A stretch of 25,276 nt of DNA from a virus, in the UHGV virus genome UHGV-1630393; one strand, given 5' to 3'. This document shows positions 12,001-15,000 of this stretch, in pieces. Each line of letters opens with the position of its first letter. Position 1 is the stretch's first letter. The position numbers were made by a program.

Positions 12001-15000
12001 TTGTATACAGTGTTACCAGGGGAATATCATCACGGCTGGTATTCCATGACTCGTGAAGGGTCCAGACAGATTCGCCATTAGTACCTTCGCTGCGTCGATA
12101 AATTTCAACGCGACGGGGCATAATATGGCGGATCTGCTCCACCTTCTTCTGCCCGAAATCATCACCATCAACAATGATGATCTCTTTTATACGCAAATCA
12201 GTGAGAACGACTTTCCCTTTTTCAACTTTCGATTTCCATCCAATAACCTGGCGTGGATTCAACATCGTAACGTATGGACGACCACCAACCGCATTTTCAT
12301 CGGCTTTTGTCCGGATCTCGTTCACATCCGTTCGTGGATAATCCACCAGCGCATGTGCCACACCATACTGAAATGCGAGGCTGAAAAATTGCTGCGCCCA
12401 CACATCCAGTCGGCTCCCCTCCATGTCGATATTTTCTGCATATTCCCTGATTTTTTCCGGCGTTTCCTCACTCAATACTGTCGGCTCTGCAAATATGCGC
12501 CCAATATTTTGCTTAATGCTTTCTTCATACACAGGAAGTAGCGTAGCCACGGACAGGCGTTTTTTATAAGCGTCTTCATCTTCGTTAGGCCATTTTGGGA
12601 GATAATTTTCTCCCTGCCTGCGCATTTCAAGCGTACCGCCCATCAGTGCGTCGTTAATATCCCACGCCTCCAGCATATCGTTATAGTCGAGGTTGGGTGT
12701 TGATATATCAGCCATAATTAAATCCGAAGTGATGTGACTCTTCCGGTCGGTTTGACAATAGGGAATTGTTTAACGATGAAATAACCTCCTGCATCATTCG
12801 GGTGATCGTTGCCAGATTTTTTATCAGGCTCCCCCTTATCATCCCAGACCTGTTGCTCCAGAGATTCGGCATATACCGGACAACGCTTCACATTAACTTT
12901 ATAGCGACGCTCGCCATTGGCATTGCAGAACATTGCATTCATTGAGTTAACGCGATCTTTTACTGGCGGGTTCGAACTGTTCACCACAACGTTAAAACCG
13001 GCCTGTTTAAGCTGAGCAATATCCGTCGCACTTGCATTATTTGATTTTCGGGAATCCCCGGAGGCATCAGGATAAATATAAATTTCTCTCACCTTCCGGT
13101 AATCATTTCCGTCATATAGCCAGAAGCGTTCTTTAATGATACGGATCATATCCGGCGTATCGTAGGCATTGATTATTTCGGTTACCGCACATGGAAGACC
13201 CAAACGCAGCACATGGACGATCCCCGCCATCTTTCCAACGTTAAAATCCATCCCGATATAAATCGGCTCCCCAGGCTGCTCCACCTCTTCGCAATTATTC
13301 AGTTTCCGGTCAAACTGATGGTAAACAGTACCACTTGTCAGGTTAGTAAACCGTCCACGAAGATAGGCTTTAATCAGCTCTGGAGGGTATGATTCAAGAA
13401 GCGAAGGAATGTAATCTGCTGGCAGGTTCTTTTCATTATCGAAAGTAGATGCCTGCACCAGACCATACAGTGAGGACAACTCTGTTTTTTCACGCACGGC
13501 TTTAACAAACTGCTCATAGACAAATTTGAATCCTTCTGGCGTGGTTGTAACGTCAATACCGTTGCGAAGTCCATCAACCTTATAACGCATACGCGCAATT
13601 ATCTTGCGCCACGCAGTTCTGGCTTTTTCCTTCGGCAAAATGTCCAGTTCATCCACCAGCGCATTACCAATTTTGAAACCGACGATCGTTTGCGGCTTCT
13701 CCATCGATCTGCAGATGGTGGTTCCCCGATACTGGCGTCCGTAATAAAAATGAACCTCTTTATTTCCCTCATTAATTTTTACGTTCAATCCCCAGTCAGC
13801 AGCAACTTCTTCCACTGTAGGGTAAAAAATATCGCGAATTTGGGGATACGTTGGCGCAAAATATCCCTGATTTATACCAGGATGCTCCCAAATCCCCTTG
13901 CATATGCCGCCACACCCCACCCATGTTTTGCCAGAGCCAAAACCAGCAATATAGGCTTTAAATTTATGAGGCATGGAAAGAAATCGCGCCTGAGGCACAT
14001 TAAGCGTCGGAGAGATCATCTTCATCACTCCTTACCCTGGCATCAACTACATTAATATTGATCGCCACAGGCAGGGGATGTTCATTACCCTCCACCGTTT
14101 CGATCTCTTTGCGCAGCTTCTGGTTTCCCATTCTGCGCCGCTCAATTTCCAGTTCCTGTAGCCGCTTATCTGCACATAATGCCCCGCCAGCAGAAAGCAA
14201 ACGCAACAATTCACGCCGGGCGGCAGCTTTATTCTCCTGCAGGATCTCAACACCGAATTTTCCGAGCTTTGCCCCTGCATATAATTGCCGTACATCCCCA
14301 TCAAGCAGAGTGGTATCGGCCATATAAAGCTGCCCTGTTCCCTCACCGCAGCACTTCGGGCAGTCCGAATTGGGTATGGCGTTATCAACAAACCCGAGGC
14401 CACCATATTCAGGTTCAGGTTTGCCATCTCTGGAGGCCTGTGCCGCTGCCTTGTCGAATTCTGCTATATCGCGCCACTGGTAGAGGTGATTCTCGCCCCA
14501 GCAATAACGGCAGTTAACACGACGAAATTGTGCCAACTGATTGGGGTCGGCCTGAACAATGGCCATCAACTGACTCACCAGTAAATCCAGGTCTGCGGTA
14601 TAGCGTTTCTGGTACTGATTGCGGAACCATGAGATAGCCCGATAAACCTTAACATTTCTTAACAGGCGGGAAGCTGCGGCACTTGCTACGTTTCCCGTCC
14701 CCTCGTAACCCGCCAGGCGGTATGCATCGATAAGGTTTTTACCCTGGGCAACCAGCATGGCGAATTTTGCCTGCTGGTCAGAAATGCCGAATTCATCGGG
14801 ACAGAATGAAATCTCCTCCGCGCCACTCTTAATCAGGAAGGCATCGGATACCGTCTTTTTTTTCTGAGATTTTCTGTTCCGCTTTTGCGCAGTCTGCGCA
14901 GATTTTTTCTGCGCACTTTTTTGCGCAGTTTTGCGCACTTCTATCTGCGCATTTTTCGGAGGTTTTTTGATGTAACGACGGGCTGTTGCGTAATTCAGTC

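Follow-up and report, generated by a model that had tools for sequence, protein, structure and literature searches.

A TGCGCA array within a prophage small terminase gene as a probable packaging recognition site that co-varies with the N-terminal domain of the enzyme

Introduction

The closest precedent for the element described here is the packaging (pac) site of phage P1, in which seven TGATCA/G hexamers, arranged four and three around the cut site, lie inside the pacA gene and cleavage is controlled by Dam (PMC10028697). Phage P22 has one asymmetric 22-bp pac site inside gene 3 (PMC7672466, PMC9611059), for which binding of the small terminase subunit (TerS) is not demonstrable in vitro (PMC9611059). 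In the TerS ring of SF6 and SPP1, helix-turn-helix (HTH) motifs lie about one DNA turn apart; their DNA-binding domain is almost indifferent to sequence, and the box repeats are not what drives binding (PMC4737164). The cosB site of lambda contains repeated 16-bp R elements that are read by the N-terminal winged HTH of gpNu1 (PMC9611059). Reviews state that sequence-specific recognition of pac is still unexplained (PMC7672466, PMC9611059). The present study concerns an array of six copies of the palindromic hexamer TGCGCA inside the TerS gene (terS) of the viral genome UHGV-1630393, a stretch of 25,276 nucleotides that we refer to as the window.

The window matches a prophage of Escherichia coli 357900 (100% identical over the 321 bp tested), and the 5' region of its terS is present in 882 of 5,426 complete E. 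coli genomes. A preliminary description of the window had proposed the array as a candidate pac site. The results presented below suggest that the array is probably a multivalent, pac-type TerS recognition site read by the N-terminal domains of the protein, and that site and reader move as one cassette between terminases.

Results

Position and copy number of the array

The array and the parts of TerS that surround it map as follows:
14000–15094, minus strand: small terminase subunit gene (364 amino acids), assigned by Pfam Terminase_2, phrog_51, and RefSeq.
14886–14951, no strand: six TGCGCA palindromes in an array proposed as the pac-type recognition site of TerS.
14963–15094, minus strand: N-terminal three-helix, HTH-like domain (amino acids 1–44), the proposed reader of the hexamer.
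14963–14992, minus strand: helix 3 (amino acids 35–44, YATARRYIKK), the putative recognition helix, whose residues 39–41 co-vary with the motif.
14810–14962, minus strand: basic, predicted-disordered interdomain linker (amino acids 45–95), whose coding DNA carries the array.

Exact matches to TGCGCA start at positions 14886, 14895, 14910, 14922, 14932, and 14946, which confirms the six copies in 66 bp of the preliminary description. They correspond to codons 48–70 of the terS open reading frame (ORF) and fall wholly inside linker-coding DNA. The array had been placed in the 5' part of the gene just before that for the large terminase subunit (TerL); this location holds, and terS overlaps the start of the TerL gene. 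TGCGCA was found neither upstream of terS nor in the first 120 nt of the gene. The window contains 15 copies of the hexamer, 6 of which sit in the array, compared with 9.7 expected from dinucleotide shuffles of the whole window. Throughout the window, no other hexamer exceeds three copies per 66-bp span. Assuming a Poisson distribution and a background of 9 copies in ~25.2 kb, the chance of a six-copy TGCGCA cluster is ~1e-9. The cluster is real and well beyond chance.

Centre-to-centre spacings in the array are 9, 15, 12, 10, and 14 bp. The helical-turn spacing that had been noted is therefore only loosely true; the mean is 12.0 bp, and the individual steps are irregular (9–15 bp). The commonest spacings in relatives are 7, 9, 12, 14, and 16 bp (range 7–16), and with these distances dominant, strict helical phasing is not supported. 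The T-runs said to separate the copies were seen on the plus strand, where they correspond to Lys AAA codons on the coding strand. Centres of A-tracts in the array recur at ~11–14 bp or multiples of this distance, a periodicity that is only suggestive.

Two other properties of the gene were observed. An A8 run (T8 on the plus strand) lies in the linker-coding DNA at 14856–14863, and many database TerS entries of this family are truncated or frameshifted in the A-rich linker (e.g., 86–87-amino-acid products in complete E. coli chromosomes), which points either to sequencing errors in homopolymers or to frequent loss of function. A further TGCGCA of terS, the seventh, stands alone (14110–14115; gene nt 980) and is read through the codons Leu-Arg-Lys. 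This copy is kept in the close clade and also in phages pPE4 and Rac-SA53, probably through retention of the protein sequence.

Conservation of the DNA word

Five of the six copies are read as xxT-GCG-CAx, encoding Asn, Thr, or Ser followed by Ala-Gln, whereas the copy at 14932 is read in a different frame as xTG-CGC-Axx (Val-Arg-Lys). We resampled synonymous codons for linker residues 41–85 according to the prophage's own codon usage. At least six TGCGCA appeared in 1 of 200,000 draws (p ~5e-6), and the mode was zero. In 165 unique genes with an ARR-type helix 3, TGCGCA occurs 679, 167, and 49 times in frames 3, 2, and 1, respectively; depending on frame, it encodes Ala-Gln/His, Leu/Val/Met-Arg, or Cys-Ala.

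Dipeptide coding was compared in 44 homologous genes retrieved only by their protein sequence. T-GCG-CA codes for 157 of 180 Ala-Gln/His dipeptides of the linker (87%), compared with 127 of 1,407 (9%) in flanking ORFs. The value for the rest of the gene, in which many relatives have a second small cluster, is 42%. The linker peptide varies widely among these homologues while TGCGCA persists. The comparison of homologues suggested in the preliminary description, when made in terms of reading frames and codon choice, reveals a DNA repeat conserved beyond the needs of the protein. What has been conserved is the DNA word; the linker peptide is its consequence.

Co-occurrence with the N-terminal domain of TerS

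In a pattern-first scan, 2.9 million viral contigs (IMG/VR) were searched for three TGCGCA spaced 3–9 bp apart. A homologue of TerS residues 1–46 was found 3–110 bp from the array in at least 77 loci (77 of 120 among the matches listed); the non-TerS remainder among these matches consisted of coding tandem repeats, GC-rich chance matches, and a few other contexts. A protein-first scan, in which the N-terminal domain served as query and one genome was taken per species, yielded 64 loci from ~60 enterobacterial species. The density of TGCGCA in these loci is 19.9/kb in gene nt 121–300 versus 0.43/kb in the 20-kb flanks (46-fold), and none of the 45 intact ARR-type genes has fewer than three copies. 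Homologues contain 3–10 copies, beginning at nt 135–147, within ~3 codons of the end of the domain. Many relatives have two clusters (nt ~135–200 and ~340–400), the second of which comprises 2–3 copies; in Klebsiella-type relatives, these 2–3 copies lie ~170–200 bp downstream. The window and its clade have a single cluster.

The module formed by domain and array is found on three Terminase_2 subtypes and at least two TerS types unassigned in Pfam, and its TerL partners are of the Terminase_6N/6C, Terminase_3/3C, and unassigned types. In every case, the N-terminal domain is part of a larger TerS protein, and a TerL gene comes next. Hosts of the module are E. coli, many other Enterobacterales, and Aeromonas, and it occurs in prophages that encode Stx and LT-II toxins. 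The array strictly co-occurs with the domain and is independent of the TerS body, TerL type, and neighbouring genes.

Some additional loci merit mention. Among L373/L405, L398/L455, L445, L103 (1493–1600), and L102 (2896–2990) there are non-coding pairs of TGCGAATTCGCA and a non-coding, seven-copy TGCGCA array; the DNA retrieved for these loci contains no TerS domain. Both may be orphan (satellite or pseudo-pac) sites or unrelated operators. L102 also has iteron-like TTTGCGCAGATTTACGCA repeats inside a 252-amino-acid ORF. In L007 (2091–2170), a phage of 57% GC, a different, HTH_50-like TerS N-terminus (DWHAIEADFRAGALSNRQIAKKHGV...) is followed by 5–6 TGCGCA. The order of domain and then array therefore recurs with distant HTH types.

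Moved, decayed, and variable arrays

Two related low-GC phages, L114 and L578, encode TerS proteins that are 65% identical and retain the ARRYIK domain. Their linkers (ITKAKAKVK and AAKAKAKVK, respectively) carry no TGCGCA. Intergenic TGCGCA arrays are found instead at 9745–9805 in L114 (six copies) and 10517–10571 in L578 (five copies), 1.9 and 2.8 kb upstream of terS, respectively. Each lies just before a Shine-Dalgarno sequence and ATG, downstream of a Q-like antiterminator gene, and accounts for 6 of 7 (L114) or 5 of 12 (L578) of all TGCGCA in the locus. Between the two phages, the hexamers are conserved and the spacers have diverged. The array survives in non-coding DNA, independent of coding.

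A deletion in Rac-SA53 has joined gene O to terS; the N-terminal domain is gone and three of the five remaining hexamers are mutated. The E. coli clade of the window has 4–6 copies, the commonest E. coli variant having four. This variation indicates that single copies are dispensable and the array is not. Synonymous loss of hexamers in close relatives, named in the preliminary description as a sign against a pac site, does take place at individual positions: in close E. coli relatives, copy 6 is often lost by the synonymous change GCG to GCA (and copy 2 by Arg to Cys). It does not extend to the array, at least 3–4 copies of which are retained in every intact gene.

Co-variation of the motif with helix 3

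An AlphaFold2 model of the TerS N-terminus, generated with an alignment of 41 homologues, predicts helices at residues 6–20, 24–31, and 35–38 and beyond, with a predicted local distance difference test score (pLDDT) of 78–89 over amino acids 1–40. In the linker, pLDDT falls below 50 for amino acids 60–78. Helices 2 and 3 are separated by a tight turn, in which Gly32 is kept by 90% or more of the 41 homologues in the alignment. Fold and profile searches with the domain returned only sub-threshold matches, nearly all of them HTH or winged-HTH regulators; because the matches stay below threshold, we designate the domain HTH-like. If canonical HTH proteins are taken as the model, residues 39–41 of helix 3 would occupy base-contacting positions.

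Unique genes from sets selected by protein or DNA homology, with pattern scans excluded, exhibit the following correspondence between helix 3 (amino acids 38–43) and motif:
ARR[YH][ILV]K, ~100 genes: linker median of 4–7 TGCGCA; median of 0 (maximum 2) for TGCGAA and GATCAT.
AKRYIK, 11 genes: 0 TGCGCA and 4–7 TGCGAA/TTCGCA, often as the 12-bp palindrome TGCGAATTCGCA.
ARTRIK (Stx phages, e.g., Min27), 12 genes: 4–5 (C/T)GATCAT.

On the basis of these counts, the motif co-varies with helix 3 of the TerS N-terminal domain. A pattern-only scan for paired TGCGAATTCGCA identified 102 viral loci, 96 of which have the domain within 200 bp; the helix is AKRYIK in 95 of these 96. The replacement of Arg39 by Lys alongside a change of G:C to A:T in the motif would fit reading of guanine by arginine. 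TerS proteins of the Stx type are ~75% identical and nearly identical over residues 1–37; an RTR helix 3 accompanies GATCAT, whereas RRY accompanies TGCGCA. The arrays comprise 4–5 GATCAT with ARTRIK and 5–6 TGCGCA with ARRYIK. TGCGCA is still present next to domains merely 37–50% identical to that of the window in which ARRY[IL]K is kept.

Phage pPE4 has the TerS body of the window joined to an N-terminus of unrelated type (Pfam HTH_50, 28.2 bits). Both orientations of GTTTCC(AC) are present in its linker, where they are read as Val-Ser-Thr or Val-Glu/Glu-Thr; three relatives of 43–63% identity share these features. A pattern scan for the GTTTCCAC pair was unspecific; a pPE4-type domain lies near 3 of 120 among the matches listed, and the scan supports only those three.

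The linker peptide of Stx-phage TerS, IDHEIDHKTDHEIDHD, is coded by 4–5 (C/T)GATCAT (L194, phage Min27, 2630–2700; L275–L312). The presence of a Dam GATC site in every such repeat is reminiscent of P1 pac and its methylation-controlled TGATCA/G.

Terminase genes and their surroundings

Two further features complete the terminase region:
14195–14776, minus strand: Terminase_2 core (amino acids 107–300) with a CxxC...CxxC insertion, assigned by Pfam.
12718–14028, minus strand: large terminase subunit gene, Terminase_6N (E 2.5e-32) and Terminase_6C (E 2e-10).

The Terminase_2 match (PF03592) scores 30.8 bits against a cut-off of 26.1, compared with 71.1 bits for Klebsiella-type TerS. The whole protein matches phrog_51, "terminase small subunit" (E 3.9e-70, PHROGs), and the same TerS in E. 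coli 357900 bears this label in RefSeq. Similarity of the core to the small terminase of Pam5 (PDB 21di) is weak (E 0.051). The insertion (CRYCWGENH...CPKCCGEG; 14345–14510, minus strand; TerS amino acids ~196–250) resembles a zinc ribbon and splits the Terminase_2 domain. TerL has relatives of 40–51% identity in Kagunavirus, Jerseyvirus, and Dhillonvirus phages, and its gene is followed by one for a DUF4055 portal protein.

Directly upstream of terS is an 83-amino-acid ORF (15098–15349, minus strand) that overlaps the 3' end of a TET-associated glycosyltransferase (TAGT) gene. It matches positions 145–218 of 319 in phrog_309, a different small-terminase family (E 2.5e-22), and may represent either a remnant or an HTH protein with an accessory role. 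The TAGT gene (PF20691, E 1.7e-35; phrog_842) adjoins that for a ParB_N protein (15285–16998, minus strand); no TET/JBP or cytosine methyltransferase gene was found in the window. Genes for the B and A subunits of the type II heat-labile enterotoxin LT-II (17475–18612, minus strand) lie between the lysis and packaging genes, a layout shared with Rac-SA53. A sok antitoxin RNA (Rfam RF01794, 111 bits; 23977–24153, minus strand) marks a hok/sok-type toxin-antitoxin locus in the prophage.

Discussion

Selection at the level of DNA, together with change of the motif alongside the N-terminal domain, makes a recognition site for the packaging enzyme the most likely identity of the array. The earlier proposal of a candidate pac site is supported by these sequence comparisons; indeed, the link to the terminase appears stronger than first noticed, because the motif both co-occurs and co-varies with the N-terminal domain of TerS. 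We classify the array as a probable pac-type site embedded in terS, a kind that is already known. We infer binding by TerS, the HTH mode of reading, pac function, the position of the cut, and headful packaging. A possible mechanism begins with assembly of a TerS ring through the Terminase_2 core, from which each subunit would extend its N-terminal HTH-like domain on a disordered, basic tether of ~50 residues. Several domains would each bind one TGCGCA via helix 3, with Arg39 and Arg40 reading the G/C core, and weak single contacts would sum through avidity into specific, multivalent capture of phage concatemer DNA. Bound TerS would then recruit TerL, a first cut would be made nearby, and packaging would start. 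The disordered tether would tolerate irregular spacing of 7–16 bp, and A-tracts at ~11–14 bp may help bending.

We give about even chances to a broader proposal in which a ~45-amino-acid HTH-like domain and its own 6-bp words constitute a portable cassette of reader plus site that has been grafted onto unrelated TerS and TerL proteins. As part of this proposal, the specificity of the cassette could be read from two or three residues of helix 3 (ARRYIK-TGCGCA, AKRYIK-TGCGAA, ARTRIK-GATCAT). Already under the packaging-site reading, a site only a few codons from its reader would be co-inherited with it when terminase genes recombine, and such co-inheritance would explain why the same cassette is found on several unrelated TerS bodies and TerL types.

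Several observations weigh against a TerS recognition site of this type. The N-terminal domain is considered HTH-like through a medium-confidence model and sub-threshold matches only. Co-variation rests on few independent switch events, and shared descent contributes to it because only a few codons separate the motif from helix 3. GATCAT copies of the Stx class are without exception (49 of 49) in one frame and therefore do not demonstrate DNA-level selection for that class. Characterised DNA-binding domains of the Terminase_2 type (SF6/SPP1) are nearly non-specific (PMC4737164). The irregular spacing means that a rigid wrap with one site per turn fails unless the tethers are flexible, and individual TGCGCA copies are dispensable. 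Finally, our literature search found no virion-end, TerS-binding, or packaging-mode experiment for any member of the group.

Other explanations for the array must be set against a packaging recognition site. According to one of these, raised in the preliminary description, selection on a basic AQK-type peptide repeat alone makes the DNA repeat. Five of the six copies do encode X-Ala-Gln with Lys next. This explanation fails because one window copy is out of frame (as are 24% of copies across homologues), because only one in 200,000 recodings reproduces the array, and because three frames are used in homologues, with Cys-Ala and Leu/Val/Met-Arg readings among them. Nor does it account for the intergenic arrays or for the difference between 87% and 9% in dipeptide coding. 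We regard it as effectively ruled out, and a protein tandem repeat without DNA function was rejected because the encoded peptide does not fully explain the DNA repeat. It is very unlikely that the array serves nucleic-acid secondary structure, either as hairpins in terS mRNA or as hairpins with T-runs that terminate antisense transcription. The folding energy of the mRNA segment is -37.1 kcal/mol (z = -6.3), and four terminator-like hairpins were called on the antisense strand, but any run of self-complementary hexamers folds in this manner and the antisense "terminators" are palindromes beside T-runs. Copy numbers are often odd, spacing and pairing partners are not conserved, and hairpins are not kept by the TGCGAA half-sites, the GATCAT class, or the GTTTCC class with its two orientations. 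Co-variation with a protein helix would also be left unexplained. An RNA element was rejected, given that a strong fold is expected of any palindrome array and that Rfam covariance models gave no match at the array. Neutral slippage or duplication in the A-rich linker, shared by descent and hitch-hiking with the adjacent domain, is extremely unlikely as the origin of the pattern. TRF detects weak periodicities of 12–36 bp, and duplications of 9- or 12-nt units do change copy number (TAQTAQTAQ in L038/L039; an extra IDHE in L308). However, the hexamer is kept across domains merely 37–50% identical while spacers and linker peptides diverge; slippage accounts for changes in copy number and not for retention across deep divergence. 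The occurrence of TGCGCA in three frames and in non-coding DNA, its 46-fold density above the flanks in ~60 species, and decay of the array once the domain is deleted (Rac-SA53) argue further against slippage.

A regulatory role has more in its favour. The domain could bind the array for autoregulation of terminase or late genes, as a roadblock or operator, rather than for the initiation of packaging. The arrays of L114 and L578 occupy a late-operon leader before a start codon and downstream of an antiterminator gene, a site inside its own gene could be an autoregulatory roadblock, and non-coding TGCGAATTCGCA pairs exist without a TerS domain nearby. We nevertheless consider such a role unlikely; it is less economical because the domain is always part of TerS with TerL following. 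TerS proteins are known readers of packaging sites, and terS is the established location of pac in P22 and SPP1, the precedents invoked in the preliminary description, and likewise in P1. Moreover, 4–10 sites suit a ring oligomer better than an operator, and no promoter-like site surrounds the window array. A promoter or terminator role was rejected on this last ground and because the antisense terminators are a by-product of the palindromes. It is hardly credible that the array is instead a target for local DNA modification through the nearby ParB-like and TAGT genes, or for restriction and modification, TGCGCA being an FspI-type site. Although TAGT (PF20691) and ParB_N genes lie just upstream of the window terS, only 3 of 63 species loci have such a pair beside the TerS module, the ground on which the link was rejected. 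Klebsiella, Yersinia, Aeromonas, and Stx phages carry arrays without ParB/TAGT, and the motif follows the TerS helix, not the neighbours.

In the literature we covered, which was incomplete, no description of the domain, the arrays, or the correspondence between helix and motif was found. The family offers an explicit short motif in 4–10 copies, a small and separable reader domain, natural variants that differ at 1–3 helix residues, and some members in which the site has moved outside the gene. These properties render the question of TerS specificity directly testable. If the cassette proposal is true, this would be the first case of a pac-type system with sequence-specific TerS recognition that can be predicted from sequence; packaging specificity, pseudo-pac sites, and hijacking by satellites would become predictable as well, and packaging could be re-targeted by swapping a few residues and hexamers. 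The module is common, including in prophages that carry Stx and LT-II toxins, and is therefore relevant to transduction of virulence genes. It also presents a case in which a cis-element dictates the composition of a disordered protein linker.

The window array resembles P1 pac in that a cluster of short, near-palindromic hexamers lies in the 5' part of the small-terminase gene and multiple copies of one hexamer are used (six TGCGCA in 66 bp in the window). In P1, two clusters flank the cut region, whereas the window has one cluster and many of its relatives have two. TGCGCA lacks the Dam GATC, which is present only in the Stx-type GATCAT variant. The window TerS consists of Terminase_2 and an extra N-terminal domain and appears to belong to a different family from PacA. 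With SPP1 and SF6 the window shares a Terminase_2 core, along with box repeats and bendable DNA rich in A-tracts where terS begins (PMC4737164). It differs from them in the extra N-terminal domain, whose helix 3 co-varies with an explicit 6-bp motif, and the pacL/pacC/pacR layout over promoter and gene start is not matched by the window array.

As in P22, the proposed packaging recognition site is embedded in the coding sequence of terS. The P22 site is a single 22-bp element with no array, and P22 TerS belongs to a different family. Leavitt and colleagues reportedly described, in 2013, horizontal exchange of recognition domain and site among P22-like phages. Lambda cosB likewise has several repeated TerS-binding elements by the start of terS, and an N-terminal HTH reads them. 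Lambda, however, is of the cos type, with R elements outside the coding sequence and an additional IHF site, and the window TerL is of the Terminase_6N/6C type. A final comparison can be drawn, by analogy only, to the iterons of the lambda origin in gene O, where sites for the N-terminal domain of O are written into the DNA that encodes its own interdomain linker. That element is a replication origin rather than a packaging site and belongs to an unrelated protein family; the likeness lies in the inheritance of site and reader together.

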